64,000 nucleotides of DNA from Patescibacteria group bacterium (GTDB lineage: Bacteria > Patescibacteriota > Patescibacteriia > JACRDY01): positions 2,771 through 66,770 of the forward strand of contig JBAZFH010000003.1 in the NCBI GenBank assembly GCA_041653535.1, written 5' to 3'. Below are positions 826 through 52,192 of the stretch, piece after piece (within the stretch, counting starts at the first letter, position 1; the number at the start of each line of letters is the position of its first letter). Position numbers and translations under genes: made by a program. The notes beneath the pieces were generated by a model. The model was given only the letters and a program-made list of their open reading frames with translations. It searched no databases and was not told the origin of the DNA.

Positions 826-851
826 TAGCTGGTAATATAATTTTAATAAAA

Positions 852-3800
852 ATGAAAAAGACAGAAAGGTATAAAAAGATAATATTTACCGCCAGCATCG
901 TTTTGGCGTTGCTAGTGAGTTTGTTTTGGATTAATTCGATCAATGCGGCTAACAGTAATGATTTTGGTTTGAACCAGGTAGGGCAGGTAGTCAATCTTCC
1001 GACAGCTGATATTCGAGTGACGGTAGCCAATATTATCCGTTATGCTTTAGGATTTTTGGGTATTATTGCCGTCGGTATTTGTTTATATGCCGGTTTTTTG
1101 TGGATGACGTCGGCCGGCGAAGCGGAAAAAATAGAAAAAGCAAAAAGAATTTTAATTGAAGGCGTAATCGGTTTGTTGATTATTGTTTTAGCTTTTGCCA
1201 TTGTCAGTTTTGTTGTTTCCAAACTTTTAGAAGCTACCGGTACAGGAACGGAACCGGATAAAACTTGTTCGACGGAAAATTCCGGCGAAGTCAATGGCTG
1301 CTGGGTTTGTCAATCGTCTTCTTGGACTTACGACAGCAGTATCGCTGGTTGCGGTCGGACTGATGATTTTTGGGTTACCGACATTAAACCAAGAGAAAAT
1401 GCCGTTGGACCAAAAGATACTGTCGTTAGAATTTATTTTAATAAACAAGTTAATTTTGATTCTATAGATTTGGACGATGGCGATATCACTATCTCTAAAA
1501 TCGGCGAAATTGATCCAACGACCAAGGAAGTGACCACTACTTATTCTTCGCCACTAGCGGTTGCCGGAACAATACAGTTTAAATCCGGTGATAAAACAGT
1601 GGTGGAATTTCGTCCTAACGATTTGTGTGACGCTGCTTGCAGTGAAACTTCTGATAAAAAATGTAAAAAATGTTTTAGCCCCTGGGGTTTATATCAGGTT
1701 AATGTCAGGCAGGGATCGATTCAAGATGCCATAAAGGGTAAGTCAAACCAATGCGGTGTGGTTATTGATCATTGCACGAGAAAATTCAAAATAAATGATG
1801 TGATGGATGAGGAGTCACCGAAGGTTAGTATTACTTCTCTGGAACCATCACAAGGCAGGTATGTGCCGGAAAATTATGCGGTCGAAGTCAGGATTTCTGC
1901 CAAGGATAATTACGAAATTTCCGATGTTCAACTTTATATAGACGACATGAATACGCCGGTAGCAACGTTAACTAGTGAACCGTATGTTTATACTTGGCAA
2001 ACTCCGGATGGTTTGGGGTTAAAACATACGTTATTGGCTAAAGCAAGTGATACCGACGATAATCCTGCCGGAGTTTCGGCGGAGCGAGAAGCGATTGTTC
2101 GCGCTTGGCATTGTTTTAATAATCAGAAAGACACTTTTTCTTCTTCGCCGGAAAAAAACGAGTTTGAAATTGATTGCGGCGGAACCGAATGCGGTGCTTG
2201 TGTTGGTGCCGATTGCGATGCGGCTGATAAGGATACTACCACTTGTAAAACTCCGACCAACGACGTTTGTTGGACTAATTATTGCGCGCCGGCTGATTGC
2301 AAATGCGAAGGTTGGCCGGAAATTCAGACAGTAGAGCCAGGTAGAGCGCCAAAAGGAAATTTTGTTACTATTAGAGGAAGGTTTTTTGGTAAGACGTCGG
2401 GACAGGTGGTGTTTTTGGGCGGGGCAGGAGAGGCTGATGATAAGATCGGTATTAAGCCGTCGCAGATTAACAACCAGTGCGATGACGAAAGTTGCTGGAC
2501 AGATACTCAGGTGATTGTAGTGTTGCCAGACGGCGCTGTCAGCGGTCCGATAAAAATTATTACCACTGAGAATAAAGAAGATGCTACTAATGATAATCAC
2601 GGTTCTCAGTTGCTTGATTTTGATGTTTGTACCACTAGCAACGGTAATTGTTATGATTATCCCGGAATTTGTAAATTGAACCCGGCGCAAGGAGCGGCGG
2701 ATGCTTTGTTTAAAATTTACGGAATCAACTTTGGTACTACTCAAGGTAGCGCTCTGGTAAAATTCGGTGGCAAATACAGCGCGGTGATTAATTCTTGGGC
2801 AGATACCGGCAAAGAAGCAGAAGCGCGCGTGCCTAATATTCAAAGCGGGCGTCCGACGGTTACTATCGAACGCGGCGATATAAAGAGCAATCCTTTTGAA
2901 TTTTTAGTAAAATCAAGTCCTTTAGCTAATCCGATTATTTCAGATGTGCAGCCAAAAAGCGGTGGTTTTGGTCAATATGTTACTATTACCGGTCAAAATT
3001 TTGGCAGAGCCGGTGTAGTAGAGTTTATAAATAAAAACGATACCAGTAAAAAATTTCCAGCTGATTTAAACTTCCCTCAGCAGTGTCAGGATAAAATTTG
3101 GAATAATAATCAAGTAATAGTAAAAGTGCCAGATACCGGCAGTGCATTACTTGGTGATTATTTTATCGTTATTAGTCGTTCTTCCGACAATGCTTCTTCG
3201 GCAGCAGCTGATTTTATCATTAATACCGATACACCCACTCCGGGAATTTGTTTGCTCAAACCAGATAACGGTCCGGAAGCAACCCCTGTTTATGTTTTCG
3301 GCGACAGCATGGGGTCACAGAACGGCAGTGTTAATTTTTGGCAAGCAACAGTGACCGCGCCGATTATTTCTTGGAGCGAAGTGGTAAAAGTTCAGGTGCC
3401 GAAAAATACTAAAACCGGTCCGGTGGTGTTAGTTAGTGCACAGGGTAAATCCAGTAATCCTTTGAATTTCTCCGTCGGTTCTTGCCGCGCGGATGATGAT
3501 TGTACTGGTAAGCCGACGGCTGGCGAGTGTGACCAAGATCAGGAACTCGGCGTTTCACCAAAGACCAATTGTTGGGTTTGTAATAAAAGTGTTGCCACGG
3601 GGAATTATTATTGGGAATGGAGCGATACATCCTGTGGCGTTATCGACCAGTGTTGTCCTTCAGGCGTTTGTCAAACCAAAGGTACTTGTGTGGGGATCGG
3701 CGTGCTTTCTTCTTACGCTTGGGCTTTTTCTACCGGAGAGATTCCCCGCTATCCGAAAGTAGTTGAAGAATGTAATCGCGATGAAACTTGTCCGGAGGGA

Positions 3801-6800
3801 GCAAATACCCCCAGCCCCAGTCCTTGGACTCCTCGATGGGATATTAATCGCGGTTTTGATCTAGCTTGTCCCAATTCGGTTATTACTGCTCGATTTAATA
3901 TGGATATGAACCCGGATGATCTCGAAGATGTTAATAATTATAATTTTGAAAAATGCGGATATCAGACCGACGTTAATGGCGACGGTAAAGACGATCATGA
4001 TCCGTGTGTTTGCAGTCCAACGGCAAACTGCGCTTGTATTAACGGCGGCAATACCAACTGTAATCAAAAAATTAATATTACGGCTGATAATTTAATTACT
4101 TTCAACGACGGTTTTATTGTTAATTTTGCCGGAGTTGGCTTGCAGCCGGACAGCTGGTATCGCATGGCTTTACGCAAGGGGGATGCTTTGCCGGGCACAA
4201 CCGGTTTTCATTCCGCCACCGCACAAGGAGGATATCAGTTATTGGCGGATTATATCTGGCAGTTTAAAACTCGCGTTGACAGCGCTAAATGTAAAATTGG
4301 CTGCCCGACAGTGGTGCCGGTTTCTTATACTGCTAATCGTTTGGCAAAGCTTTATTTAAACTGGGATAATCCTGCTTTCCCGCGTAATCCGGTCTATCAC
4401 ACTGCCCAGGCTTCGGCGGAAAATAATCCATGTAATTTGATTGATACTTATGACTATCAGTGGTCCTGGAAGGCTACTGAAGCGGACGGTGCGAATACCA
4501 ATAAAGCCGCTTTGTACCAGATACCAAGTAATGGCTGTAGCGATAGTCGCGATAATGACAATGACGGAAAAAAAGATTATAAAGCCGGCTGTACCGTTGA
4601 CAGCGTTGATTGTGATTATAAATGCGTTTCTTCCTATGATCGATCAGAAGAGGCGGGCGAGCAATTAGTTGCTTATTTTGGCAATCTGCGTCATGCCGAA
4701 GCAATCAAGCCTACTGGTGGAAACACTTATTCTTGCGATTGTGATATTGCTCCACAATGTTCGGATAGCCTAGAAAATGACGGTGATAATAAAGTTGATT
4801 ATCCGGCTGATACGGAATGCGATACGCCTGGTGATTATAGTGAATTACTTTCTGGGTTGCAGACTCGCTCCGACGTTATTGTTGTTGCGCAAAAAGGCGT
4901 AATCACAAATTCTTCGGAAGAATGTCAGCTTTATTGTAAGGGTTTATCTAATAATACCTGGTCTTGGTATAAAACCGGTGGTTATCAAATAGCCGGTGAT
5001 CCGGTTTTAATCAGAGCGCAGGAGCTGTCTTCCGGCAAAGAAGGAAGAGCTAATTTGTTTATTAATCTGGAAGACCCTAAGGTTATTGCTAAATGGCCGG
5101 ATTGTTCACAGGCTTGTGTGAATAGTCAGGTTGGTGCTGCTTTTAATGTACCGATGGCAGAAAATACCTTGGTTGATGCTAAAAATGTCATGCTTTTTTC
5201 TTGCGGTGCCGACCTGGAATGTAAGAAAGAAAATATGTCTTCGGTCCCGATTGAAAATATTGATCCGGATTTAAGTATCGATTATCGTTACAGTGAAAGC
5301 GTTGATGACGGTCTTTATAATTCCGAGCTGACTTTTTATCCTCGCAGCACTACCCCGGGTGATTATAACGGCGGAAAACTTTTGCCAAATACTTATTATC
5401 GCGTGATACTCGGCAGTCCCGATAACGATCCGATACAAAACATCGATGGATTAAAATTGATCGGTTTAAATTACGATAATTATGCCGCTGACAATGTTCC
5501 GGATAGTTATAGCTGGATATTTAGCACCAAAAATGACTATAATTTATGTTCAGTTGATCATGTATCGGTTACTCCTAACAAGGCTTTTTTAAGCGCTATA
5601 CCGGCGTATCAATCTTATTTTAGTCAGGCATTTGGTCGGTCTGACGACTGTAGTCCTTTTGGTCAAAAACTAAACAACAGTTTTTATAGTTGGAAATGGG
5701 AGTCGGAAAAACCGACAGTTGCCCAAACCATTGGTTATAGCGTTGGTTGCGGTAATGGTATTATTGACCGCGGCGAAAATTGTGATGACGGGGTTTATCC
5801 TCCGGTTTCCGGCGACGGTTGTTCAAATAAATGTTTACGAGAGGGTAGTAGCTATTCTGTTTTCGGCTTATGTGGTAACGGGGTGGTGGAAAGCTGGGAA
5901 CAATGCGATTACGGGGTAAAAATCGGTAATCCTGCTTGGACGGAAAATAATTGTAATTCAGCGACTTGTCTATTAAATACGACCAGCAGACCGGCGGGTT
6001 CTTGCCGCGATGGCGTAATTCAGTCTTGGGAAAGCTGCGATTACGGTCCATTGATCACCGATTATTATACCGATCAAGAAGATAACCATGTTTATAATAA
6101 TTACGAAGTAAATAGTTGTAATGCCAATACTTGTTTAAATACTGGCAATACAAATCAAGGTTTGGCGGTTTGTGGTAACGGCAGGCTAGAAGGCGGGGAG
6201 GCTTGTGATGTTGTTGATGAACCAAATAATAACAACACAGACGGTTGTGCTGACAATTGTGTCAGTTCCGGTTCTGTTGATGGACGGTCTTTGTGCGGTG
6301 ATGGTCAGGTAGGTACTGGAGAAGAATGTGAATTATGTTGGAATGATGATAAAAGCGTGTTTTCTGTTATTAGAAACGGTAGTTGTTCCGCTAATAGTCT
6401 TTATGGTCATGGTGATATCGATTCCGGCACTCCAAGCTTTGCTGGTAAGACTAAAGATCCGGCGTCGGCTGAAGCCGGATGTCAGCGTGCCGGAGCGGAT
6501 AAGGTTTCTTGTGTAATTTTAAATTCAAGCGGTGGATATAAATACGATAGAAATCGTATTGGCAATTGGTGGAAATCCTCTTGCCAAAACGGTATCGTCG
6601 ACCGCGGTGAAGAATGTGACCTTGGATCGATAGTGGAAAATTATTATGGCGGTCAGAATAATTATGAAGTCAATAATTGCAATCCGACAAATTGTTTATA
6701 TAACGGTAGTAGCGAAGCAACGCCGGATTTATTAAATCGCAAGGCTTATCAGCTAGCACAATCGGTTGGAGAGGGTCGGGCTAATATCACTGCCTTTACT

Positions 6801-9800
6801 GGCGGTGTTTGTACCGGCGATCCTAAATTTACTGCTTGCATTCAGACAAGCGATTGTCCTCTTAATTCCGTCGGTAATAAATACGAGTGTGATTTGTCTG
6901 GGACTAAAAAAGGATCCTCCGATCTGACGGTGGTTTGCGGTTGGACAGATGAAGCTTGTGCTCTAAATAACGCCGGATACGGCGCTGATGCCAGCGGTTG
7001 CTGTCGAACGCGACCGGTAGTTTATTCTTCTTATCCGCATGGAGATAATGTTTGTCGTAATACTTCTATTAGCGTTCTTTTTGACAGCAATCATCCGATG
7101 GATTTTACTACTTTTAATAGTAAAAATATTTCGGTTTCCGTTGATGGTTGTGCCGTGGCGGTAAATAGTGGCGCAAATAGGTGGTGGCATTATTTGGTGA
7201 ATACTTATCAGAGGGTGAAGGATTGGGTGATTGGTGTTTTTAGTCATCAAGCAAATGCTGCGGAAATAAATGAATGTACGGTAAATTATTCCGTGACTGG
7301 AATTGAATATGTCGATAATGGCGTGGGCAGCGATGGTTTGACCCATAGTAAGATGGTAATTAATCTCTCCTCTCCCTTGCCGCCAAATAAAACGATTAAG
7401 GTTAAATTTGCCTCAGCGGTTAAAGACAGTCTGGGTGTGTCCGTTTTGCGCGGAGCAAATGTTTACGAATGGACTTTTAATACCGGAGAGGAAATTTGTA
7501 GTTTAAATTATGTTCGTCTTAGTCCGACCAGCAAATCTTTTACTCAGACCGATGAAGTAGAAAATTTTGTTGCCTCGACATTTAATGCCAACGGACAGGA
7601 AATAGAAATGGTTCCGGGATTTTATTCTTGGAACTGGAGTTGGTCGTTGACACCGGAAATAAATAATACCAGTGCAACTTTAAGCGCGGGAGTAGCTACT
7701 TATTGTTCGGTTACCAATAAGGCTTGTAACCCTGAACACGGTAATGCTGATTGTGTCGACCCGAAATATCCTAGTCAGGTTTGCGGCGCGCCGTATAATT
7801 ATCCTTATGTTAGTCGGGTTACGTCTCAAAAAACTAACGGCGAAGGACAACTGATTGCCACCGCCACCATTACCTCGGATAGTATTATAGATGCCGGAAA
7901 AACTTTTGCCGCTCAGGCAGGAGTGGTGGTGTTTGTTTGTGAAAACCCATGGCCACAGGTTTGTAGCGCGACCATTGCTTCTGGTAATTTACTTGCTTGC
8001 GAAAAAGATGACGATTGTTATACCGAAGTCGGTCATCAATATGTCGGTCCGTGTAAATTCGATGCTGTTAGTAATTTTAGCGATTCGGATAATACCATAG
8101 TTTCGCAATTCAAAAACCCGGAAAATTATACCAATTTCCGTACTTATTATTGTCGTGACGCTGGGTCTGCTGGGTTTGATGACGATTTGCCAGCTTTAGT
8201 GTATCCGCCAATATTTACCCAAACTCCCGTTTTGCCTGCACAAAAAGGATTAATTCGCCACATTCTTTTGCCACGTGATAATTTTCGCCGTGGTGGAGAG
8301 ACCGGTGGATCAAATGATGCTTTGATTATGAGTGTTGAAGCTAACCCGCAGCATATTTCCGCCGCGCAGTGGTTCTCTGACAGGTTTGATGCCAGCGCTA
8401 CTGCGGCTAAAGCAGTGGGCGGTTATTCGGCGGTTAGCAAAGACAGTACATATTATATTAATGCCGCCAATTGGAGCCGTAGTACTAATACGATGTACAC
8501 CAATATTTATATTTTGTCCCAAAGCCAGAATTCTAATGTTAATACTAAAAATATTTTTCAGCAGTTGCTGAATAATATGAAATTTAATGTTAATGTAGAT
8601 GGTCAGGGTGTGGGTACTGATTTGTGCCGTGCTGGAACGGGGCTGGTAACTAAAAAACCTTTTGTTTGCAGCAATAACAAAAAAACCTCCTGTGTCGCTG
8701 ATACTGACTGTGGCGCGGACGGTAAGTGTGAAATTTTAGGTTGGTGTAATAACGACAACAGTAAATCGTGTTCGACCTTAGATGTTGGTAATACCGTTGA
8801 TAATGAATGCGGCGACGAGGCAGTGTTGCCAAAGGCTTTTTGCGATACCAACGCTTTCGCCGAGCCGATTTCTTGTTCCAAAGATTTCGATTGCTATCGT
8901 TGCAAGGATAATACCAATGTCGTTTGCGAACTAGATTCCGATTGTCCGAACGTCTATTCAGGCGCTTGTGCCAAAGACGTCAGTGGTAATGCCGCTTATT
9001 GTGACGCGCCTAGAGCGAAATTGATTCGTAATACGCAACGTTTGGCTGATTTGCATACCATGACCAGTATTTTGAATAATTACTATCAAAAAAATAACAA
9101 ATATCCAACACTTGATGCCGGTTCTTATGTTTCTGGAAGAAGCTATAGTACCTGGCCTTCTTGGCAGGCAACTCTGGGTAACGATCTTGGTAGTGGTTTG
9201 CCCGTTGACCCAATTGATCAGTTTAACGGCTGCTATGACGCTAATTATAACTTTAACCGTCAGACTTGTTGGGATAATAAGGCGTTACTGTTTTCTTGCC
9301 CGCAAAATTCTTATACTTATTTCTATTCCAGTAATAATGGCGGTAATGAGGGTAGGGTTTTGGTGCATCTGGAAAAACCAGAAAACGGTGATATTAATGT
9401 GTATGAATCAGACTACGAAGATCAAGATTATTTTGATGCTGTATCGGATAATTGTAAAAATTTTTCCGGTTATTCGATCAATGATTCCGATCAAGACGGT
9501 GTCCCGGATTTTGGCGATAATTGTCCTTATGAGAAAAACGGATATGTCGGAAGCGATTGTCCGACGAATGCGCCGCAGTGCTGTCCTTTTACCGACAAAA
9601 AGAAATGTTGCGCTTGGTATGGTACTGCCGACGAAGAAAAATATTGCGGTCAGGCAAATACTGATGGCGATAATTTAGGCAATTCTTGTGATTGGATTTG
9701 TCCGGTCGATGGGAATAACGATTCTGATAATGATTTTGTTTGCGGCGGACAAGACAATTGTTGGTCGGTGTATAATCCTTTGCAGGTAGACAGTGATGGT

Positions 9801-11345
9801 GATTGCCAGATGATCGGTAAGCCATATTTATTAAATCCGAAATGCGGCGATGCTTGCGATGTTGATTGTTGGGGGACCGACCCAGACGACTGCAAGACAA
9901 AATGCAATGCTTTGGCAAATACTTGGTGGACCGGCTTTGGCGGCACTGCTAATTGTTGTGGTGACGACACGACTGATAATAAAGATTATGGCTGTGTAGT
10001 ACAAAAGAGTTGCGGTAATGGCGTAATCGATCAGCGAAAAGACGGTGTCTGGGAGAAGTGTGATGACGGTGATACAAACACGGCTAATGTATGCAATAAT
10101 AGCTGTACTTGGAACTGTAAAGATAACAGCAGCCAAGCAACAATTACTTTTACTCCGGAAGAAAAATCATTGGTTACACTGCAACCAAACGCCACCATGG
10201 TAAATACCACGGTTAATATTCCGGTTTGTCGTACCGCAAATAAAATAACAATGAAAGTTTATCAAGATGCTGGCGCGGTTGGTGGTAGCTCGGTTGCCTT
10301 GGTGTTTGTATCCGATCTATCTGGTAGTATGAATGAAATATTAGAATCACCAAAAACTCGTTTAGACGTTCTCAAAGAATCTCTTAAGACAGCTATTAGC
10401 ACGTTGATTGATGAGGGCGCTGGTGTGGAAGTTGGGCTGGTTAGTTATGCTCTGACGTCCGGACCAGACACTCCTGGATTTTTACCGGTGCAAGAATCGC
10501 AAAATACTTTAAATGGCGTTATAGATAGTTATGTTGCTGGTGTCGGTGGTCTGCGGGGCAGCTCCACGTATCAGGATTTAGGGCTGCAGGAAGCTCAGAA
10601 AATGTTTAATGATTATCCCAAGGATTCTTCTGGCAAAGATTTTGACAAGAAGGTGGTTGTATTTATGACTGATGGCAATTTTAGCGGTAGTCACGATGCT
10701 ATGGCGGAAGCGACCGTATTAAAAAATCCAAACATCGGCGTAGATATGTTTACCGTGGCGTTGACAGCTGATTTGGGTCTTCGTGCCTATATGAATGGGC
10801 TCTCTTCCAGTAATTGCATCTGCGGGGATAATAATTGTAAGAATAAAGTCAGCGGTACTAGCGGTGGAGATGGCGTAGTAACTTGTAGAACCGCTAATGA
10901 TTTATTAGAGGAGTGTGATCTGACGCGAGACAGTATTTATTGTAAACAAGAAACAAATGAATTAAATTGGGTTAGTTCTGGTCGTAATAGGGCTTATAGC
11001 GCTACTACCGCCAGTCAGTTGCAGGGTTTATATGAAACGATTGCCGGTGCTATTTCCGATGAAACTGTCGCAGTTACTTTTAATGGCGGTCCGCAGCTGA
11101 CATTTAATAATTATCAGTATAATCCGGTGAATAATAAATACGAAGGTACTTTGGAAATAACACTAGATTCGACATATTGTTCATCGACCATGCCGACCGA
11201 GTCAAGCGATGAGTTTAAGGCTTATAATATTTCTTTCCAAACACCTATTGTCAAACCGGTGGTCTTTAGTGCCGGTAAACTACTTTTCTGTCCTTGGAAA
11301 AATGGTTATTATGGAGAGAGCGAAATAATAAAATCAACACTTTAA
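852..11345 (+). CDS. giant (~3,497 aa) multidomain cell-surface protein: signal peptide, TrbC/VirB2-type (T4SS-pilin-like) membrane hairpin, IPT/TIG-like repeats, Myxococcus-type Cys-rich repeats, TSP3-like Ca-binding repeats, C-terminal vWA domain
   Basis: The ATG at 852 (MKKTERYKKIIFTASIVLALLVSLFWINSINAANS, signal-peptide-like) lies inside track ORF 795..11345; the frame is uninterrupted for 10.5 kb. Motifs are read directly from the translation: GFLGIIAVGICLYAGFLWMTSAGEAEKIEKAKRILIEGVIGLLIIVLAFAIVSFVV; repeated P..G..VTIxGxNFG; at least 7 CGNG(V/I)(V/I)xxGExCDxG...C modules; DxDxDGxxDxxDNCP; DLSGSM...VVVFMTDG. Confidence 0.8.
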   Translation: MKKTERYKKIIFTASIVLALLVSLFWINSINAANSNDFGLNQVGQVVNLPTADIRVTVANIIRYALGFLGIIAVGICLYAGFLWMTSAGEAEKIEKAKRILIEGVIGLLIIVLAFAIVSFVVSKLLEATGTGTEPDKTCSTENSGEVNGCWVCQSSSWTYDSSIAGCGRTDDFWVTDIKPRENAVGPKDTVVRIYFNKQVNFDSIDLDDGDITISKIGEIDPTTKEVTTTYSSPLAVAGTIQFKSGDKTVVEFRPNDLCDAACSETSDKKCKKCFSPWGLYQVNVRQGSIQDAIKGKSNQCGVVIDHCTRKFKINDVMDEESPKVSITSLEPSQGRYVPENYAVEVRISAKDNYEISDVQLYIDDMNTPVATLTSEPYVYTWQTPDGLGLKHTLLAKASDTDDNPAGVSAEREAIVRAWHCFNNQKDTFSSSPEKNEFEIDCGGTECGACVGADCDAADKDTTTCKTPTNDVCWTNYCAPADCKCEGWPEIQTVEPGRAPKGNFVTIRGRFFGKTSGQVVFLGGAGEADDKIGIKPSQINNQCDDESCWTDTQVIVVLPDGAVSGPIKIITTENKEDATNDNHGSQLLDFDVCTTSNGNCYDYPGICKLNPAQGAADALFKIYGINFGTTQGSALVKFGGKYSAVINSWADTGKEAEARVPNIQSGRPTVTIERGDIKSNPFEFLVKSSPLANPIISDVQPKSGGFGQYVTITGQNFGRAGVVEFINKNDTSKKFPADLNFPQQCQDKIWNNNQVIVKVPDTGSALLGDYFIVISRSSDNASSAAADFIINTDTPTPGICLLKPDNGPEATPVYVFGDSMGSQNGSVNFWQATVTAPIISWSEVVKVQVPKNTKTGPVVLVSAQGKSSNPLNFSVGSCRADDDCTGKPTAGECDQDQELGVSPKTNCWVCNKSVATGNYYWEWSDTSCGVIDQCCPSGVCQTKGTCVGIGVLSSYAWAFSTGEIPRYPKVVEECNRDETCPEGANTPSPSPWTPRWDINRGFDLACPNSVITARFNMDMNPDDLEDVNNYNFEKCGYQTDVNGDGKDDHDPCVCSPTANCACINGGNTNCNQKINITADNLITFNDGFIVNFAGVGLQPDSWYRMALRKGDALPGTTGFHSATAQGGYQLLADYIWQFKTRVDSAKCKIGCPTVVPVSYTANRLAKLYLNWDNPAFPRNPVYHTAQASAENNPCNLIDTYDYQWSWKATEADGANTNKAALYQIPSNGCSDSRDNDNDGKKDYKAGCTVDSVDCDYKCVSSYDRSEEAGEQLVAYFGNLRHAEAIKPTGGNTYSCDCDIAPQCSDSLENDGDNKVDYPADTECDTPGDYSELLSGLQTRSDVIVVAQKGVITNSSEECQLYCKGLSNNTWSWYKTGGYQIAGDPVLIRAQELSSGKEGRANLFINLEDPKVIAKWPDCSQACVNSQVGAAFNVPMAENTLVDAKNVMLFSCGADLECKKENMSSVPIENIDPDLSIDYRYSESVDDGLYNSELTFYPRSTTPGDYNGGKLLPNTYYRVILGSPDNDPIQNIDGLKLIGLNYDNYAADNVPDSYSWIFSTKNDYNLCSVDHVSVTPNKAFLSAIPAYQSYFSQAFGRSDDCSPFGQKLNNSFYSWKWESEKPTVAQTIGYSVGCGNGIIDRGENCDDGVYPPVSGDGCSNKCLREGSSYSVFGLCGNGVVESWEQCDYGVKIGNPAWTENNCNSATCLLNTTSRPAGSCRDGVIQSWESCDYGPLITDYYTDQEDNHVYNNYEVNSCNANTCLNTGNTNQGLAVCGNGRLEGGEACDVVDEPNNNNTDGCADNCVSSGSVDGRSLCGDGQVGTGEECELCWNDDKSVFSVIRNGSCSANSLYGHGDIDSGTPSFAGKTKDPASAEAGCQRAGADKVSCVILNSSGGYKYDRNRIGNWWKSSCQNGIVDRGEECDLGSIVENYYGGQNNYEVNNCNPTNCLYNGSSEATPDLLNRKAYQLAQSVGEGRANITAFTGGVCTGDPKFTACIQTSDCPLNSVGNKYECDLSGTKKGSSDLTVVCGWTDEACALNNAGYGADASGCCRTRPVVYSSYPHGDNVCRNTSISVLFDSNHPMDFTTFNSKNISVSVDGCAVAVNSGANRWWHYLVNTYQRVKDWVIGVFSHQANAAEINECTVNYSVTGIEYVDNGVGSDGLTHSKMVINLSSPLPPNKTIKVKFASAVKDSLGVSVLRGANVYEWTFNTGEEICSLNYVRLSPTSKSFTQTDEVENFVASTFNANGQEIEMVPGFYSWNWSWSLTPEINNTSATLSAGVATYCSVTNKACNPEHGNADCVDPKYPSQVCGAPYNYPYVSRVTSQKTNGEGQLIATATITSDSIIDAGKTFAAQAGVVVFVCENPWPQVCSATIASGNLLACEKDDDCYTEVGHQYVGPCKFDAVSNFSDSDNTIVSQFKNPENYTNFRTYYCRDAGSAGFDDDLPALVYPPIFTQTPVLPAQKGLIRHILLPRDNFRRGGETGGSNDALIMSVEANPQHISAAQWFSDRFDASATAAKAVGGYSAVSKDSTYYINAANWSRSTNTMYTNIYILSQSQNSNVNTKNIFQQLLNNMKFNVNVDGQGVGTDLCRAGTGLVTKKPFVCSNNKKTSCVADTDCGADGKCEILGWCNNDNSKSCSTLDVGNTVDNECGDEAVLPKAFCDTNAFAEPISCSKDFDCYRCKDNTNVVCELDSDCPNVYSGACAKDVSGNAAYCDAPRAKLIRNTQRLADLHTMTSILNNYYQKNNKYPTLDAGSYVSGRSYSTWPSWQATLGNDLGSGLPVDPIDQFNGCYDANYNFNRQTCWDNKALLFSCPQNSYTYFYSSNNGGNEGRVLVHLEKPENGDINVYESDYEDQDYFDAVSDNCKNFSGYSINDSDQDGVPDFGDNCPYEKNGYVGSDCPTNAPQCCPFTDKKKCCAWYGTADEEKYCGQANTDGDNLGNSCDWICPVDGNNDSDNDFVCGGQDNCWSVYNPLQVDSDGDCQMIGKPYLLNPKCGDACDVDCWGTDPDDCKTKCNALANTWWTGFGGTANCCGDDTTDNKDYGCVVQKSCGNGVIDQRKDGVWEKCDDGDTNTANVCNNSCTWNCKDNSSQATITFTPEEKSLVTLQPNATMVNTTVNIPVCRTANKITMKVYQDAGAVGGSSVALVFVSDLSGSMNEILESPKTRLDVLKESLKTAISTLIDEGAGVEVGLVSYALTSGPDTPGFLPVQESQNTLNGVIDSYVAGVGGLRGSSTYQDLGLQEAQKMFNDYPKDSSGKDFDKKVVVFMTDGNFSGSHDAMAEATVLKNPNIGVDMFTVALTADLGLRAYMNGLSSSNCICGDNNCKNKVSGTSGGDGVVTCRTANDLLEECDLTRDSIYCKQETNELNWVSSGRNRAYSATTASQLQGLYETIAGAISDETVAVTFNGGPQLTFNNYQYNPVNNKYEGTLEITLDSTYCSSTMPTESSDEFKAYNISFQTPIVKPVVFSAGKLLFCPWKNGYYGESEIIKSTL
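1017..1230 (+). other. pilin-like double-TM hairpin segment of the giant protein (TrbC/VirB2 / T4SS-pilin-like family, as seen in CPR bacteria)
   Basis: The hairpin has two hydrophobic helices separated by MTSAGEAEKIEKAKRIL, with a GFLWMTS motif typical of this conjugative-pilin-like family. Confidence 0.55.
10290..10810 (+). other. von Willebrand factor A (vWA) domain with MIDAS motif in the C-terminal region of the giant protein
   Basis: VALVFVSDLSGSM (DxSxS MIDAS) followed by ...LVSYA... and ...KKVVVFMTDGNF (second metal-coordinating T/D), giving a Rossmann-like alternation. Confidence 0.6.
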
Positions 11346-42602: not shown

Positions 42603-43661
42603 ATGAAGATATTACTGACCGGTGGCGGGACTATGGGATCGGTTACGCCGCTGCTAGCAATAGTGGAAAATATGCGTGTTAAATATCCGGAGACGGAGTT
42701 TTTTTGGATTGGGACTGTAGATGGTCCGGAAAAGATGGTAGTGGATTCTTACAATATTTCCTTTGCGGCGATAAACAGCGGTAAGCTACGTCGATATTTT
42801 TCCTGGCAAAATTTTGTTGACCCGTTTAGAATACTTGCCGGTTATTTTCAGAGCCGCAAGATTATCAAGCAGTGGCAGCCAGATATTATTTTGTCAGCCG
42901 GTTCTTTTGTCTCTGTGCCTGTGGTCTATGCTAGCGGAAAAATTCCAGTGTTGATCCATCAGCAGGATATTGTTCCGGGATTAGCTAATAAGTTAATGGC
43001 AAAAAGAGCTGAGAAAATTACTGTAACCTTTTCTGAATCAGCGGTAATATATTCTAAAAATAAAACAGAAGTGGTTGGAAATCCGGTGCGACAAAGTCTG
43101 ATGTCTGGCAGTGTAGAAGCGGCGACAGAAATTTTTAGCCTTGAAGGTGGTTTACCGACTTTGTTGGTAGTCGGTGGCGGTACGGGCTCTTTGGTGTTAA
43201 ACGAAGCGGTGGTTGGCGCTGTACCGCAACTCACTACATTTTGCCAAGTGATTCATATTACTGGTGATGGTCGCGCTGTAGGGGGAGAAGTGGCGACGCC
43301 ACGATATCATCATTATGATTTTTTAGTTGATGAAATGAAAGACGCGTTAGCAGTTGCTGATGTAGTCATTTCTCGAGCAGGACTTGGTTTTTTGACTGAA
43401 CTGGCGGTTTTAGGAAAAGCAACAATATTAGTGCCGATGGCTGATAGTCATCAGGAGACTAATGCCAGTTATTTTGCTAAAAAAAACGCGGCGGTGATAT
43501 TGCCTCAGGGGCAGCTTGGTCCGGAAAGCATCGTCTCTTTTGTAAAATCTTTATTGGATAATCAATCAGATTTAGCCAACCTGCAACGTAATATCCGGTC
43601 ATTAGTAAAACCAGATGCTGCCAGCCGGTTAGTCGAGATAATTTTACAGTTGACAGCTTAG
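42603..43661 (+). CDS. murG: undecaprenyldiphospho-muramoylpentapeptide beta-N-acetylglucosaminyltransferase
   Basis: MKILLTGGGTMGSVTPLLAI at the N-terminus and the C-terminal GGGTGS...ISRAG..T..E pattern. Confidence 0.9.
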   Translation: MKILLTGGGTMGSVTPLLAIVENMRVKYPETEFFWIGTVDGPEKMVVDSYNISFAAINSGKLRRYFSWQNFVDPFRILAGYFQSRKIIKQWQPDIILSAGSFVSVPVVYASGKIPVLIHQQDIVPGLANKLMAKRAEKITVTFSESAVIYSKNKTEVVGNPVRQSLMSGSVEAATEIFSLEGGLPTLLVVGGGTGSLVLNEAVVGAVPQLTTFCQVIHITGDGRAVGGEVATPRYHHYDFLVDEMKDALAVADVVISRAGLGFLTELAVLGKATILVPMADSHQETNASYFAKKNAAVILPQGQLGPESIVSFVKSLLDNQSDLANLQRNIRSLVKPDAASRLVEIILQLTA

Positions 43662-43763
43662 TGGTAAAAATGTAGAATAACGCCGTGTTATTAAGTTGAG
43701 ACGATTAGTTGTTTTTTAGGCGTTATGTGGCTAAAAGCTGTGTAGTTTTTTCTAAAAGTTTTT

Positions 43764-43794
43764 AATTACTAATTATTAATTAATAATTAGTAAT
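43764..43794. promoter_or_regulatory. AT-rich 30-bp perfect palindrome containing the 20-mer TAATTACTAATTATTAATTA shared with the tRNA-Gln upstream region (candidate tRNA promoter/UP element)
   Basis: attactaattattaat|taataattagtaat is a perfect inverted repeat with no spacer; it ends 9 nt before the tRNA-like sequence at 43803. Confidence 0.4.
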
Positions 43795-43802
43795 CGTTGT
43801 TT

Positions 43803-43860
43803 GGGTGCTTAGCTCAGTGGTAGAGCGGGCCGATTTATCGGCCGCGTCGAGAGTCTCCGC
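43803..43860 (+). pseudogene. degenerate tRNA copy (5' 25 nt identical to tRNA-Lys; 6-nt 'anticodon' loop; T-arm destroyed; no 3' acceptor strand)
   Basis: gggtgcttagctcagtggtagagcg is identical to the 5' part of the tRNA at 44153. The compensated stem ggccg/cggcc carries the loop atttat, gcgtcgagag is shared, and what follows does not fold as a T-arm. Confidence 0.6.
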
Positions 43861-43878
43861 CTCGGCTTTCGCCGTAGG
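43844..43878 (+). repeat. copy A of a ~34-nt direct repeat (gcgtYgagaRtYtccgYctMggcttt(c)gccgta) flanking the GIY-YIG/tRNA-Lys unit
   Basis: About 82% identical to copy B, with one indel; it begins with the variable-loop/T-stem sequence of tRNA-Lys. Confidence 0.5.
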
Positions 43879-43900
43879 CGAAATAGGCGATTTTCTAGGT

Positions 43901-44143
43901 ATGTATTTTATTTATATATTGAAAAGTTTGAAAGATTATGGTTATTATGTCGGTAGCACGGCAAATTTGGAAGAAAGACTTAAAAGACATAATCAAGGTC
44001 GTTCAGCGGCTACTAAAAGCAGGAGACCGTGGGAGTTGGTTTATTCTAAAAGGTTTAAAAGTAAAAACGAGGCAATAAAATTAGAGTATTATATCAAGAA
44101 GCAAAAAAGCAGTAAGTTTATAAAAGAGTTTATTAAAAAATAA
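43901..44143 (+). CDS. small GIY-YIG nuclease-domain protein (COG2827/URI-type)
   Basis: MYFIYILKS..DYGYYVGSTANLEERLKRHNQG...RPWELVY...NEAIKLEYYIKK is the canonical GIY-(x10)-YVG...R...H..G...E core. The track ORF's 5' extension (43805) is read across the tRNA-like sequence and is rejected. Confidence 0.7.
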   Translation: MYFIYILKSLKDYGYYVGSTANLEERLKRHNQGRSAATKSRRPWELVYSKRFKSKNEAIKLEYYIKKQKSSKFIKEFIKK

Positions 44144-44152
44144 TATTGTCGT

Positions 44153-44224
44153 GGGTGCTTAGCTCAGTGGTAGAGCGCCAGCCTTTTAAGCTGGGCGTCG
44201 AGAGTTCGATCCTCTCAGCACCCA
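44153..44224 (+). tRNA. tRNA-Lys (anticodon UUU)
   Basis: Cloverleaf: gggtgct/agcaccc acceptor; gctc-agtggta-gagc D-arm; ccagc-CTTTTAA-gctgg anticodon arm; gagag-ttcgatc-ctctc T-arm; discriminator A. CCA is not encoded. Confidence 0.9.
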
Positions 44225-44279
44225 TTTTTTATTTGTTTAAATCTAAGTTAAGGCAGTGGGGCGGATGGATTTTTCGGTA

Positions 44280-44313
44280 GCGTTGAGAATTTCCGTCTAG
44301 GCTTTGCCGTAAC
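44280..44313 (+). repeat. copy B of the ~34-nt direct repeat, 56 nt downstream of tRNA-Lys
   Basis: Alignment with copy A was done by eye; it is preceded by ggtag, as in the tRNA D-loop. Confidence 0.5.
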
Positions 44314-44339
44314 TGGGTAGCCAAAGTACCCGGTTTTTT
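44313..44339 (+). terminator. hairpin + T-run terminator after the tRNA-Lys locus, directly followed by the TATAAT box (44342-44347) of the ATPase gene
   Basis: ctgggtaGCCAAAGtacccgg followed by tttttt, then tataat 10 nt before the ATG at 44358 (leaderless-type arrangement). Confidence 0.5.
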
Positions 44340-44357
44340 GTTATAATACAAATAATT

Positions 44358-47012
44358 ATGAGCGAAAAACCATGGCACTCTTTGTCGATTTCAGAGGTAT
44401 TTCGGGTGTTAAAAACCTCAGACGTGGGTTTGTCGGAAAAAGAAGTCAACAAGCGGATTTTTAAATTTGGTAAAAACACACTGCCGGAAGAAAAAAAGAC
44501 CACGGCTTTTACTATAATTTTTAACCAAGTGAAAAGTCCGCTGGTTTTTATTTTATTTCTGGCAAGTATTGTTTCTGCTGCTTTAGGGCACTGGTTAGAC
44601 GCTCTGGTAATTTTAGCCGTGGTTATTTTTAACAGCATTATTGGATTTTTTCAGGAGTACAAAGCAAGCCAGGCTATAGCACAGTTGAAAAAAATAGTCA
44701 GCTATCAAGCGCTGGTTATCCGTGGTGGAGCTAAAATAATGATTGATGCTAGCTCGATTGTACCTGGAGATATTGTAGTTTTAGAGCCTGGCATGAAGGT
44801 GCCGGCTGATTGTCGTTTGATAAAAATAAACGATCTCCAAATGGTGGAGGCGGCTTTGACGGGAGAATCGGAACCAGCCGATAAAAAATTGAGAATTTTA
44901 TCTATTCAAACAGTGATTTCCGATCGAGATAATATGGTTTTTATGGGAACGGTAGTAGCTCGGGGCAAAGGTCTGGCGGTTGTTTGTGCTACGGGAGGCG
45001 CTACCGAGATCGGTAAAATTGCCGAAATGGTGAAAGAAACAGAAGAGGAACAAACACCATTACAGGAAAGTATAAATCGTTTGGCGATTTTTCTTTCTTG
45101 GCTCGCGGTTACTGTTTGCGTTATTCTATTTATTGCCGGAGTTTTAGCCGGCAGAGATAAGCTAGAGATGTTTTTGGTCAGCGTGGCGATAGCGGTAGCC
45201 GCTATTCCGGAAGGATTAGCGATAGCATTGACGGTTATTTTGGTTATTGGAATGAAAAAGATTTTGAAACAAAAATCATTGGTAAGAAAACTGATAGCGG
45301 CAGAGACTCTCGGCGGAACGACGGTGATTTGTAGCGACAAAACTGGTACCTTGACCGAAGGGAAAATGGAGGTGGCAAAGTTAATATTGCCGGGTCATGA
45401 AATTTTTTTAGAAAAAAAGAAAATTGAGATTAGTGATAAATCAACCTTGGCTTTCAAAATTGCGGTTTTATGCAACGACAGTTTCATCCAGAAAAACGGT
45501 AAAGAAGAGTTGTTGGTGGGTGATTCAACAGAGCAGGCATTATTACGGGCCGGAATTAAAGTAGGCATTAATCCGGAAAAACTGCAGTCTGGTTTTTCTC
45601 GTTTGGACGAGGTGCCCTTTTCTTCCGAAAGTATGTTTATGGCAACTCTTAACAAAGGTTTTTTAGCTGATCAGATGACGCTATTAGTTAAAGGAGCGCC
45701 AGAAGTCGTATTGTCGCGTTGTACCAATATTTTGGTTGATTCGCAAATAAAATCGATTAATTCTCAAGATAGTCTGGTGTGGAAGAAAAGAATCGCCCAA
45801 CTTACCGCTCGTGGCTATAGGACTTTGGCGGTGGCTTATAAAGAAGTGGCTAAAGACGGTAAGGTTAAAATAAAAGACAGAGTAAAAGATTTGGTTTTTG
45901 TTGGCATTTTTATTTTGCGCGATCCGTTACGCGCCGATGCCAGGGAAACTATCGAAATTTGTCGTCGTGCGGGTATTAGGCCGATACTTATTACCGGTGA
46001 TCATCGTTTAACCGCTGTTAGGATCGCTCAAGATGTCGGGATTGAAGCAAATGATAAGACAGCGCTAGAGGGTATTGATCTGGATAAAATGGACGAAAAG
46101 TCTCTGATTAAAGTAGTTAGTCGAATCAATGTTTATGCGAGAGTTGAGCCGCGGCACAAGATTAGAATTGTCGAAGCGTTACGCGACAGAGGCGAAGTGG
46201 TGGCAATGACTGGCGATGGCGTTAATGATGCGCCGGCGATTAAAGCAGCCGATATCGGTATTGCTCTTGGATCCGGTACTGACGTTGCCAAGGAAACGGC
46301 GGATTTGATTTTACTTGATGATAATTTTCGTACCATTGTTGATGCTGTCCGTGGCGGACGAGTGATACTTGATAATTTGCGTAAAGTTTTAGTTTATCTT
46401 TTGTCTAGTACGGTAACAGAAATGTTTTTGATCGGCGCTTCGATAGTTTTTGGTTTACCCTTACCGTTGATTGCGATCCAGATTTTGTGGGTCAATATCG
46501 TCGAAGACGCTTTTCCTGTTTTTGCTCTGACTACCGATCCTGAAGAAAAAGGTATTATGTCTGAGCGCCCACGCGGTCGCGACAAGTCTTTGGTTGATAG
46601 AAAGATGAAATCAATTATTATCTCAATGTCGGTTTTAAACAACCTTTTTTTATTTTCAATATTTTATTTTTTCTTACATTTTAGGGTTTATAGTTTGGAC
46701 GAAATAAGGACAGTGGTGTTTGTTGGTTTGGCTAGCGGTTCGTTATTTTACGTTTTTGCTTGTCGTTCTTTACGTTATCCGATTTGGAAGTATAACCCTT
46801 TTGCCAACGGCTATGTCAACCTTTCGGTGGTTGTTGGTTTTTGTTTGATGGCTTTAGCGGTTTATTGGTCTCCGTTACAATTGGTTTTAAAAACCGTACC
46901 GCTTCATTTTGAGTTATGGCTGATTTTGCTTGCTTTCGGCGTTTTAGCTTTGCTTTGTATAGAGATGGTAAAATATTTTTTCATTTCAAAAAATAATGGT
47001 AAAAAAATATGA
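44358..47012 (+). CDS. P-type cation-transporting ATPase (P2/Ca2+- or Mg2+-type)
   Basis: DKTGTLT (phosphorylation site), TGES, MTGDGVNDAPAIK and GDGVND hinge are present; 10 TM helices, 884 aa. Confidence 0.95.
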   Translation: MSEKPWHSLSISEVFRVLKTSDVGLSEKEVNKRIFKFGKNTLPEEKKTTAFTIIFNQVKSPLVFILFLASIVSAALGHWLDALVILAVVIFNSIIGFFQEYKASQAIAQLKKIVSYQALVIRGGAKIMIDASSIVPGDIVVLEPGMKVPADCRLIKINDLQMVEAALTGESEPADKKLRILSIQTVISDRDNMVFMGTVVARGKGLAVVCATGGATEIGKIAEMVKETEEEQTPLQESINRLAIFLSWLAVTVCVILFIAGVLAGRDKLEMFLVSVAIAVAAIPEGLAIALTVILVIGMKKILKQKSLVRKLIAAETLGGTTVICSDKTGTLTEGKMEVAKLILPGHEIFLEKKKIEISDKSTLAFKIAVLCNDSFIQKNGKEELLVGDSTEQALLRAGIKVGINPEKLQSGFSRLDEVPFSSESMFMATLNKGFLADQMTLLVKGAPEVVLSRCTNILVDSQIKSINSQDSLVWKKRIAQLTARGYRTLAVAYKEVAKDGKVKIKDRVKDLVFVGIFILRDPLRADARETIEICRRAGIRPILITGDHRLTAVRIAQDVGIEANDKTALEGIDLDKMDEKSLIKVVSRINVYARVEPRHKIRIVEALRDRGEVVAMTGDGVNDAPAIKAADIGIALGSGTDVAKETADLILLDDNFRTIVDAVRGGRVILDNLRKVLVYLLSSTVTEMFLIGASIVFGLPLPLIAIQILWVNIVEDAFPVFALTTDPEEKGIMSERPRGRDKSLVDRKMKSIIISMSVLNNLFLFSIFYFFLHFRVYSLDEIRTVVFVGLASGSLFYVFACRSLRYPIWKYNPFANGYVNLSVVVGFCLMALAVYWSPLQLVLKTVPLHFELWLILLAFGVLALLCIEMVKYFFISKNNGKKI

Positions 47013-49206: not shown

Positions 49207-49262
49207 AAATTGTTAATACTAAAAAAGCCGCCTCATTCTATCGAGACGGCTTTCACTGGTTT

Positions 49263-49321
49263 TGGAGTCACCTATTGGGTTTGAACCCACGACTTGCAGT
49301 TTATCCGTCTGCCAAAGCCTC
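49263..49321 (-). pseudogene. 59-nt tRNA 3' remnant (anticodon-arm-like hairpin, T-arm, acceptor 3' strand, discriminator and encoded CCA) abutting tRNA-Thr; no 5' acceptor/D-arm
   Basis: The minus-strand sequence is gaggctttggcagacggataaactgcaagtcGTGGGttcaaacCCAATaggtgacTCCA. Its T-loop TTCAAAC is canonical, but the anticodon-region loop is non-canonical (G at position 33 or a 9-nt loop). Confidence 0.5.
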
Positions 49322-49394
49322 AGCCCACGGCCGGAGTTGAACCGGCAACCTACGGTTTACGATACCGTTGCTCTGCCAATTGAGCTACATGGGC
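49322..49394 (-). tRNA. tRNA-Thr (anticodon CGU)
   Basis: Minus-strand cloverleaf: gcccatg/cgtgggc acceptor (one G-U); gctc..gagc D-arm; acggt-ATCGTAA-accgt anticodon arm; gccgg-ttcaact-ccggc T-arm. Confidence 0.85.
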
Positions 49395-49467
49395 TTAGGT
49401 TATGGCGGTCGGGCGATACTGTTACTTTGTCAATCGAATTAAGGTGACCGGCAAAAATAGTGAATTA

Positions 49468-51982: not shown

Positions 51983-52020
51983 TCGTTATCTCTTGACTTT
52001 AGGTTCTAATCCGTATAAAA

Positions 52021-52040
52021 TAATTACTAATTATTAATTA
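52021..52040. promoter_or_regulatory. second copy of AT-rich 20-mer TAATTACTAATTATTAATTA, 78 nt upstream of tRNA-Gln; preceded by TTGACT (51996) ... TATAAA
   Basis: Exact 20/20 match to 43764-43783. Confidence 0.4.
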
Positions 52041-52117
52041 GTAATTATTAATTAATGCGTTGCAGGCGGGCAAACTGTAAGGTACTATTGTTGATTTGTA
52101 ATTAATAATTGTTTCGT

Positions 52118-52192
52118 TGGGGAGTCGCCAAGCGGTAAGGCACCGCCCTTTGGAGGCGGCATTCGAAGGTTCGAATCCTTCCTCCCCAGCCA
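52118..52192 (+). tRNA. tRNA-Gln (anticodon UUG), CCA encoded
   Basis: U1:A72 acceptor (tggggag/ctcccca), a 3-bp D-stem as in bacterial tRNA-Gln, ccgcc-CTTTGGA-ggcgg anticodon arm, gaagg-ttcgaat-ccttc T-arm, and G73 followed by CCA. Confidence 0.85.

Follow-up and report, generated by a model that had tools for sequence, protein, structure and literature searches.

SegB of phage T4, a GIY-YIG homing endonuclease, recognizes a site in which the conserved tRNA T-stem-loop motif is present (PMC2330249), and integrase-borne islands and prophages that occupy tRNA genes are bounded by an intact tRNA at attL and a partial tRNA at attR, with the crossover in the anticodon or T loop (PMC9897764). Here we describe a related arrangement at positions 43764–44339 of a 64,000-nucleotide stretch (the whole of which we call the window) from a metagenome-assembled genome (MAG) of a Patescibacteria group bacterium (contig JBAZFH010000003.1): a gene for a very small GIY-YIG protein lies between a truncated, hairpin-bearing copy of a tRNA-Lys gene (U) and the intact tRNA-Lys gene, behind which follows a decayed second truncated copy (D). 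Judged by sequence comparison, this locus is one copy of a widespread cassette family, in which a GIY-YIG gene for a protein of 80–100 amino acids is combined with a hairpin-bearing partial tRNA duplicate and an adjacent intact tRNA on the same strand. We found no description of tRNA-nested minimal GIY-YIG/hairpin cassettes in the literature, Rfam, NCBIfam, PADLOC or PHROGs, so far as we can tell an apparently undescribed family. The explanation that we favour, and hold to be the probable one, is that the cassette is a selfish, homing-type element in which a duplicated tRNA gene houses a stand-alone Slx1/UPF0213-like nuclease, and whose spread would be initiated by a cut.

Among described systems, the cassette would appear to work most like intronless homing by Seg-type endonucleases, that is, as a free-standing homing-type nuclease cassette. 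Both place a GIY-YIG nuclease gene among tRNA genes (SegB in the T4 tRNA gene cluster), and SegB spreads by intronless homing, in which flanking tRNA sequence is co-converted; a tract shared by two Cytophagales genomes (see below) bears the matching signature. The differences are of architecture and setting. Seg proteins have two domains, including a DNA-binding region, whereas the cassette protein consists of the catalytic domain only (80–100 amino acids), so that the defining Seg architecture is absent; moreover, the cassettes are chromosomal in many bacterial phyla rather than phage-borne, are nested in a partly duplicated tRNA gene, carry a hairpin that replaces a tRNA arm, and form tandem arrays.

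In sequence and fold, the nearest relatives of the cassette protein are the Slx1/UPF0213 proteins (YhbQ, YazA, BH0048, EF2693; COG2827), with which its size and catalytic residues agree. Slx1 is a structure-specific nuclease of flaps, junctions and stem-loops that needs a partner, Slx4; a specificity of this kind is one way in which a domain lacking a DNA-binding module could act on structures in tRNA genes or hairpins. We know of no described link between Slx1/UPF0213 proteins and tRNA genes, pseudo-tRNAs or hairpins, and literature searches found none; nor, to our knowledge, do the bacterial UPF0213 members have an assigned function.

Other systems share single features with the cassette. 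As in integrase islands, an intact tRNA and a directly repeated partial tRNA bracket foreign DNA, the breakpoints fall in the anticodon or T arm, and the tRNA is restored; the cassette differs in that it has no integrase, an insert of only 0.3–0.4 kb, duplicates of both 5' and 3' tRNA parts, a hairpin at the junction, and arrays. The 3' partial copy that marks integrase events is absent from the window, where the repeat is of the 5' part and D aligns to U, but relatives of the layout that we call B (see below) do show 3' repeats. A group I intron with its homing gene in a tRNA anticodon loop also ties a nuclease gene to the anticodon region of a tRNA, but the cassette contains no ribozyme (Rfam gave no match to Intron_gpI or any other ribozyme at E ≤ 10) and its functional tRNA-Lys is a separate, uninterrupted copy. 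REP/RAYT and IS200/IS605 elements combine a short, conserved, GC-rich hairpin with one small nuclease gene and multiply locally; theirs is an HUH nuclease, whereas Pfam and NCBIfam give GIY-YIG only, and no HUH nuclease, for the cassette protein, and the cassette hairpins lie within tRNA copies and are undispersed, no other non-genic CCGA-N3-7-TCGG being present in the 64-kb window besides that at 43828–43843.

Anatomy of the tRNA-Lys locus

The features of the locus are these:

43650..43678, plus strand: candidate sigma-70-like promoter TTGACA-17-TAGAAT, 11/12 consensus positions, overlapping the murG stop codon (consensus scan only)
43765..43794, no strand: AT-rich palindrome with perfect 15+15 nt arms, its end 8 nt before U (inverted-repeat search)
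43803..43827, plus strand: 5' part of U, an exact copy of tRNA-Lys positions 1–25 (acceptor 5' strand and D arm), 100% identical to 44153–44177
43828..43843, plus strand: signature hairpin GGCCGA-TTTA-TCGGCC in place of the anticodon arm, with a perfect 6-bp stem
43844..43854, plus strand: U copy of the tRNA-Lys variable loop and T-stem 5' strand, GCGTCGAGAGT, identical to 44195–44205
43855..43900, plus strand: non-tRNA tail, or nuclease leader, with a second GC-rich stem-loop (minimum-free-energy fold; alignment of U and D)
43901..44143, plus strand: GIY-YIG nuclease gene, 80 codons and stop, Slx1/UPF0213 type (Pfam PF01541, E 1e-19)
44153..44225 (ARAGORN/Rfam start 44152/3), plus strand: intact tRNA-Lys(UUU) (ARAGORN; Rfam RF00005, 71.7 bits)
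44253..44311, plus strand: D, a decayed second copy of U (D loop, degenerate hairpin, variable loop, tail), by local alignment with 43814–43876
about 44311..44340, plus strand: intrinsic terminator, 9-bp stem and T run, the sole terminator-like site in 43600–44450 (consensus match only)

Much of this had been recognized in a preliminary description made from the letters of the window, and its basic elements hold: the exact 25-nt repeat of the tRNA-Lys 5' end, the tiny GIY-YIG gene between the copies, a single intact tRNA-Lys, and the shared variable-loop/T-stem stretch. The repeat reaches 26 nt when the preceding T is included (43802–43827 = 44152–44177; blastn-short E 9e-10 in the window). 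The similarity of U to tRNA-Lys stops at 43854, such that U has neither a T arm nor a 3' acceptor strand, and its earlier designation as degenerate agrees with the failure of both ARAGORN and Rfam (RF00005 included, even at E ≤ 10) to call a tRNA there. Other particulars we read differently. The compensated stem in place of the anticodon stem is real, but it is best read as 6 bp closed by a tetraloop (GGCCGA/TTTA/TCGGCC) rather than 5 bp with a 6-nt loop; nor is this change a mark of degeneration: the hairpin is conserved across phyla (see below).

The downstream repeat, described previously as about 34 nt, is present but extends over about 60 nt: 43814–43876 aligns with 44253–44311 over 62 columns at ~77% identity (score 44, equalled by 0 of 2000 shuffles). 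D begins in the D loop and continues through a decayed hairpin and the variable loop into the non-tRNA tail, so that the tail at 43855–43900 recurs in decayed form. Because D aligns to U, while tRNA-Lys gave no significant alignment with the downstream region, we conclude that D is a copy of the upstream pseudo-tRNA and not of the tRNA; the best explanation for it is that an older unit left it behind. That U is identical to the tRNA at 25/25 positions while the tails of U and D have diverged by ~23% points to either a recent formation of U or ongoing gene conversion.

To judge from the placement of these signals, a single transcription unit would seem to run from U through the nuclease gene and tRNA-Lys to D, with 43650–43678 as the candidate start and no terminator-like site between this promoter and 44311. 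The tRNA-Lys begins 9 nt past the nuclease stop codon, and the nuclease probably rides on the transcription of an essential tRNA. The AT-rich palindrome does stand before the degenerate copy, as had been pointed out, and is perfect in its arms; however, because a palindrome 93–94% similar to it occurs at 52019–52056, upstream of tRNA-Gln (52118–52192), it is probably a host tRNA-upstream or promoter element that lies outside the cassette. Its position suggests that the 5' part of U occupies the original site of the tRNA-Lys 5' end. We also observed a further AT-rich palindromic repeat of like similarity at 52099–52117, again upstream of the tRNA-Gln gene, and a motif, AATAAT..GT(T)TCGT, 7–9 nt before the 5' ends of tRNA-Gln, the intact tRNA-Lys and U, which may be a lineage-specific tRNA promoter or –10 element.

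The protein encoded at 43901–44143 (NCBI MFA5358910.1, from a Patescibacteria group bacterium MAG) scores 71 bits against Pfam PF01541, for which the gathering cut-off is 22.6, and residues Y5, Y16, G18, R26, H30 and E62 are invariant among 30 homologues. A profile search of the PDB returned UPF0213 BH0048 (1zg2; 6.5e-15) together with EF2693, then SLX1 domains (2e-8), then the I-TevI catalytic domain; the AlphaFold (AF2) model has a predicted local distance difference test score of 94.3, and its top Foldseek matches are UPF0213 1zg2 and Slx1 7cq2/6seh. These comparisons place the protein in the Slx1/UPF0213 branch of the GIY-YIG superfamily, presumably as an active nuclease. Pfam, AF2 and Foldseek agree that its 80 amino acids are the catalytic domain alone, with no extra or DNA-binding domain, and NCBIfam, PADLOC and PHROGs contain no specific family for it. 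Longer open reading frames (ORFs) in databases, of 108 and 112 amino acids, read through U and are spurious, artefacts of gene calling.

A cassette family across phyla and tRNA types

Homologues were gathered by protein similarity alone, blind to tRNAs, and their contigs were then inspected; the genome scan, made with an eight-sequence alignment, drew on the motif KKQKS[KS]KF alone, so that the genome sample is biased to the motif and not to tRNA context. The sample is modest, at 20 distinct loci, and taxon labels of MAG contigs may be unreliable; locus pairs L004/L005 and L002/L003 come from the same strains (100% identity), and no comparison is drawn from them. An intact tRNA on the same strand lies within 260 nt of the GIY-YIG ORF in 18/20 loci, and within 60 nt in 16/20, the two exceptions being L015 (at a contig edge) and L135 (only a degenerate tRNA-Asp); partial tRNA copies are present in all 20. 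As a control, tRNAs partnered with a GIY-YIG gene have exact partial copies of 13–43 nt, and tRNAs more than 300 nt away have mostly ≤10 nt. The loci represent at least 7 phyla and 5 tRNA types (Lys, Asp, Val, Asn, Ala), with host labels of Patescibacteria, Bacteroidota, Ignavibacteria, Chlorobiota, Nitrospirota, Cloacimonetes, Desulfobacterales and a Gammaproteobacteria bin:

Patescibacteria (L002, L004): U, GIY-YIG, tRNA-Lys and D, as in the window
Nitrospiria (L008): tRNA-Ala
Ignavibacteria (L007): tRNA-Asp
Cloacimonetes (L117): tRNA-Asp, two GIY-YIG genes and four hairpin pseudo-tRNAs
Cytophagales (L009, L011): tRNA-Val
Chryseobacterium (L010, L012, L013): tRNA-Asn, tandem arrays of 385-nt units
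Patescibacteria (L014): tRNA-Val
Chlorobiota (L015): Lys-like pseudo-tRNA
Several metagenomic lineages (L121, L123, L124, L129, L135, L137, L138): tRNA-Asp or tRNA-Val

The window locus is thus no one-off scar, as it had first been taken to be: the order pseudo-tRNA, GIY-YIG gene, tRNA-Lys, pseudo-tRNA is repeated in the diverged L002 and L004 (the latter a Parcubacteria genome), which is the outcome that the preliminary description had itself listed as refuting such a reading.

Two layouts can be distinguished. In layout A, that of the window, the 5' part of a pseudo-tRNA is followed by the GIY-YIG gene, by the intact tRNA 7–16 nt from its stop codon, and often by a 3'-type pseudo-tRNA; in layout B, the intact tRNA comes first, its terminator abuts the GIY-YIG start codon, and the gene is followed by a pseudo-tRNA that matches the tRNA exactly in its 3' part, the blocks of identity starting at anticodon- or T-loop positions. 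In both, the part of the pseudo-tRNA distal to the nuclease gene is a perfect tRNA copy and the gene-proximal part is degenerate. In layout B the ORF extends at its 3' end over the pseudo D arm, and the protein acquires C-terminal tails of the kind ...LVRTS and ...LAQLVRVP. We considered whether U and D might be pairing halves of a split tRNA-like RNA, and rejected this: D has no 3' acceptor strand, and layout-B pseudo-tRNAs have no acceptor pairing. Insertion of the GIY-YIG gene plus tRNA into a hairpin-tRNA, with a long target duplication, was likewise discarded, since single-unit layout-B loci have no upstream copy. In L137 (313–383), ARAGORN calls a hairpin-substituted pseudo-tRNA-Val 'tRNA-Cys(ACA)'; such fragments can therefore contaminate tRNA gene sets.

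Another key feature of the family is the signature hairpin, NCCG(A/C)-N3-8-(T/G)CGGN, which takes the place of the anticodon arm or, at times, of the T arm; in one case it replaces the D loop. The class of hairpin seen in the window is present in 18/20 related loci, at 0 to 4 per locus. Under a fixed search rule, 38 hairpins were found in 12.7 kb of cassette DNA versus 11 in 120.6 kb outside, a 33-fold enrichment; the rule imposed 5 perfect pairs only, and the sixth pair, seen nearly always, was not required by the search. The CCG core is constant, the loops are free, and the outer and closing pairs are compensatory (TCCCGA/TCGGGA, CTCCGA/TCGGAG, GGCCGA/TCGGCC, TTCCGA/TCGGAA, GCCCCGA/TCGGGGC, TCCCGC/GCGGGA). 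This covariation fits a folded hairpin or else a symmetric duplex site. No Rfam family matches the pseudo-tRNAs or the hairpin. A scan of viral contigs with GAGTCCCGANNNNTCGGGA gave 57 loci, none with a GIY-YIG gene or tRNA nearby. Among these contigs we noted a recurrent repeat, GTCATTGCGAG-TCCCGAnnnnTCGGGA-CGAAGCAATC (L061, L067, L071, L075, L080, L081, L083, L085, L097, L103, L104, L113 and L114), which holds the same 16-nt palindrome within a longer imperfect hairpin, likewise with no GIY-YIG gene or tRNA nearby.

The wider protein family comprises 6475 cluster representatives (50% identity) at E ≤ 1e-10. Among the top 148, 88 have at least 20 amino acids outside the GIY core, and exact tRNA-derived 5-mers, drawn from three-frame translations of only 36 tRNAs, occur in 29/88 of these outside-core segments versus 3.8% of control segments; two GIY domains are joined in one ORF in 7 representatives. 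Such tRNA-derived extensions and double-GIY ORFs therefore indicate that tRNA adjacency and arrays are general in the family. The extensions are systematic gene-calling artefacts around cassettes: in entries P0001, P0053, P0054, P0061, P0064, P0073, P0090, P0094, P0108 and others, N- or C-terminal extensions translate tRNA or pseudo-tRNA sequence (…LAQLVEH…, …GSNP… and …GREFESR… among them), or two tandem units are fused.

Turnover and transfer of cassettes

The clearest trace of movement is a comparison of L009 with L011, both MAGs of Cytophagales. Over the 435 nt that begin with base 1 of tRNA-Val and close with the final base of the pseudo-tRNA 3' part, they differ at 6 positions (98.6% identity), whereas the flanks are 81–88% identical per 100 nt (~85%), and identity drops at once beyond the pseudo-tRNA 3' end. 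Synonymous divergence (dS) in the GIY-YIG gene is 0.051 (3 synonymous differences, 61 sites) versus 0.51–1.14 in the flanking genes. The low divergence of the cassette relative to its flanks argues that it was exchanged far more recently than the genomes diverged, in a tract bounded on both sides by tRNA sequence. This one genome pair is evidence, at the level of the family, of horizontal spread with co-conversion of flanks.

Turnover is visible elsewhere as well. At an orthologous locus, Chryseobacterium genomes carry 1, 4 or ~5 units, and in L013 a naive tRNA-Asn stands beside an occupied one. L124 contains a truncated unit. In L007 (2501–2734) the GIY-YIG frame has an in-frame TAA at 2684, after which the match resumes (…KKQKSKKFIEDL); either the copy is decaying or the stop is a sequencing error. 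Upstream of the intact tRNA-Asp of L138, the segment 1040–1445 holds a solo hairpin pseudo-tRNA-Val 3' part with no nuclease gene, and three tandem 94-nt repeats, each composed of a 27-nt leader, tRNA-Asp positions 1–26, the hairpin CCCGCA/TGCGGG and a variable loop; hairpin-bearing fragments can thus multiply without the gene. The GIY-YIG clades mostly track the tRNA partner, with several switches.

We propose that these observations describe an element for which the tRNA sequences on both sides of the cassette would serve as portable homology arms. The nuclease would probably initiate the process with a cut in tRNA-gene DNA, made either by recognition of structure, as with Slx1, or at the conserved arms, as with T4 SegB; through homologous repair or recombination a copy of the cassette would then enter the same tRNA gene in a second genome, always restoring one functional tRNA. 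The nuclease would be transcribed from the tRNA promoter, in layout B by read-through of the terminator that abuts its start codon. The hairpin stands in place of exactly the arms that a SegB- or Slx1-like enzyme would use, and may therefore mark the spare as a disabled tRNA copy, possibly one that cannot be cleaved; alternatively, the hairpin could be the enzyme's own binding or cutting structure.

Alternative explanations and wider meaning

Several findings weigh against a selfish cassette. The intact tRNA keeps its normal arms, such that an arm-targeting nuclease would threaten the host's own copy, which would somehow have to escape cutting, and an 80-amino-acid domain has no obvious means of sequence recognition. 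The 16-nt palindrome is also found inside unrelated repeat families (viral scan), and so is not diagnostic alone. The evidence of transfer comes from the single pair L009/L011. No empty-site allele was found for the window locus, and no clean one for any other; a single MurG-based metagenome scan gave 44 loci but no close relative of this genome (best match 51% identity), and none has tRNA-Lys or a GIY-YIG gene after murG. A vehicle for transfer is not evident, since the family is essentially missing from the phage and plasmid collections, where tblastn returned only a 41% Staphylococcus phage match and B. subtilis yazA, and a viral scan with the protein alignment returned one distant partial match at a contig edge. 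The cassette also persists. That of L002 lies in the same murG...ATPase neighbourhood as the window's, although L002 is deeply diverged, and between the two the GIY-YIG protein is more conserved (63–65% amino-acid identity) than the flanking housekeeping proteins MurG (43%) and ATPase (45%); orthologous-locus persistence with a ratio of nonsynonymous to synonymous divergence (dN/dS) <1 is seen in four lineages, including at loci in Chryseobacterium, in Cytophagales, and in the group (L121, L129, L138) that has the lon-tRNA-Asp-GIY arrangement in common. Shared synteny and persistence would fit long vertical retention, possibly with a host function.

These last points are the strength of the rival that comes nearest, a domesticated or host-beneficial module in which the nuclease has been anciently fixed with tRNA genes (for tRNA-gene repair, copy maintenance, or action on tRNA) and the hairpin fragments serve as processing, stability or attenuation elements of the shared transcript. 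The tRNA-linked maintenance nuclease of the preliminary description survives in this form, ranked below the selfish reading; we think it unlikely, though well worth keeping in view. Most of the ORFs are intact, with invariant catalytic residues and dN/dS of ~0.27; the gene and the tRNA are tightly coupled, by the short stop-to-tRNA spacing of layout A and by the start codon at the terminator in layout B; and UPF0213 relatives are adjacent or fused to tRNA methyltransferase in Firmicutes. However, pseudo-tRNAs without acceptor-stem pairing (L013, L123), and a D without 3' acceptor, are poor tRNA mimics that match no Rfam family; the tandem arrays, the copies that are truncated or contain a stop codon, the solo remnants and the changes of tRNA partner resemble selfish turnover, and a low dS limited to the cassette in L009/L011 implies horizontal exchange. 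We regard as distinctly improbable a further scheme, RNA-guided or RNA-scaffolded targeting, in which the pseudo-tRNA transcript is the guide, the hairpin a protein handle, and the tRNA-identical flanks direct the nuclease to the cognate tRNA gene. It would account for hairpin-adjacent tRNA segments that are 100% identical to the resident tRNA in every genome even though the tRNAs differ, for the preservation of 25/25 identity in U while the U/D tail diverged, for a stem core conserved across phyla with free loops, and for a protein without a DNA-binding domain; but an RNA-guided GIY-YIG enzyme has no known precedent, the domain would be very small for a guided enzyme, the identity is explained equally well by gene conversion or a recent duplication, hairpins vary in position and number, and in layout B the tRNA-identical part lies on one side of the hairpin only. 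It is a similarly long shot that the pseudo-tRNA is a targeting device in the more general sense, acting either as RNA or as an extruded DNA structure, with the hairpin binding the nuclease and the flanks specifying the tRNA gene. Least probable of all, in our estimate, is that the locus is an attL/attR remnant of integrase-mediated integration or excision with an unrelated GIY-YIG gene left behind, or a plain tandem duplication and decay of tRNA-Lys. Islands in tRNA genes are the usual source of partial tRNA copies, through crossover in the anticodon or T loop (PMC9897764), and the identity blocks of layout B begin at exactly such positions. Yet the sole ORF between the window's repeats is the GIY-YIG gene, no integrase was found in or near any unit in the related loci inspected, the units are only 0.3–0.4 kb, the duplicate in the window is of the tRNA 5' end and not the 3' end, and chance decay cannot produce a gene, hairpin and fragment that recur together at 20 loci with five tRNA types. 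Of the ideas offered previously, tRNA-targeted integration is therefore set aside, no integrase being involved, and the selfish, homing-endonuclease-like reading is the best supported, by virtue of the family rather than of this locus alone and with particulars that differ from those first proposed.

Should the selfish, homing-type cassette be confirmed, thousands of genes annotated 'GIY-YIG nuclease family protein' would be the engines of unrecognised parasites, or partners, of tRNA genes across phyla, the reduced genomes of Patescibacteria included. This would explain why partial tRNA genes recur and why annotations contain spurious ORF extensions and odd tRNA calls, provide a first functional context for the bacterial UPF0213/YhbQ family, and show how a nuclease without a DNA-binding domain can be tied to one kind of target. 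Chryseobacterium koreense CCUG 49689 (L010), which is cultivable and bears an array, offers a directly testable system. If the hairpin pseudo-tRNA were instead a targeting device, the cassette could be more than a variant of homing-type nucleases: no smaller nuclease system directed by a guide or a structure would be known, and an exchange of flanks would retarget it to any tRNA.

Elsewhere in the window, a single ORF for a giant protein of 3516 amino acids spans 795–11345 (plus strand). On the minus strand, directly after tRNA-Thr (49321–49395), a partial tRNA-like 3' fragment at 49262–49318 has a D-arm-like TTGGCAGAC, a T-arm-like GTGGGTTCAAACCCA and the end GGTGACTCCA. It is called by neither ARAGORN nor Rfam and has no GIY-YIG gene or CCGA hairpin; it could be the remnant of another insertion or duplication at a tRNA gene.

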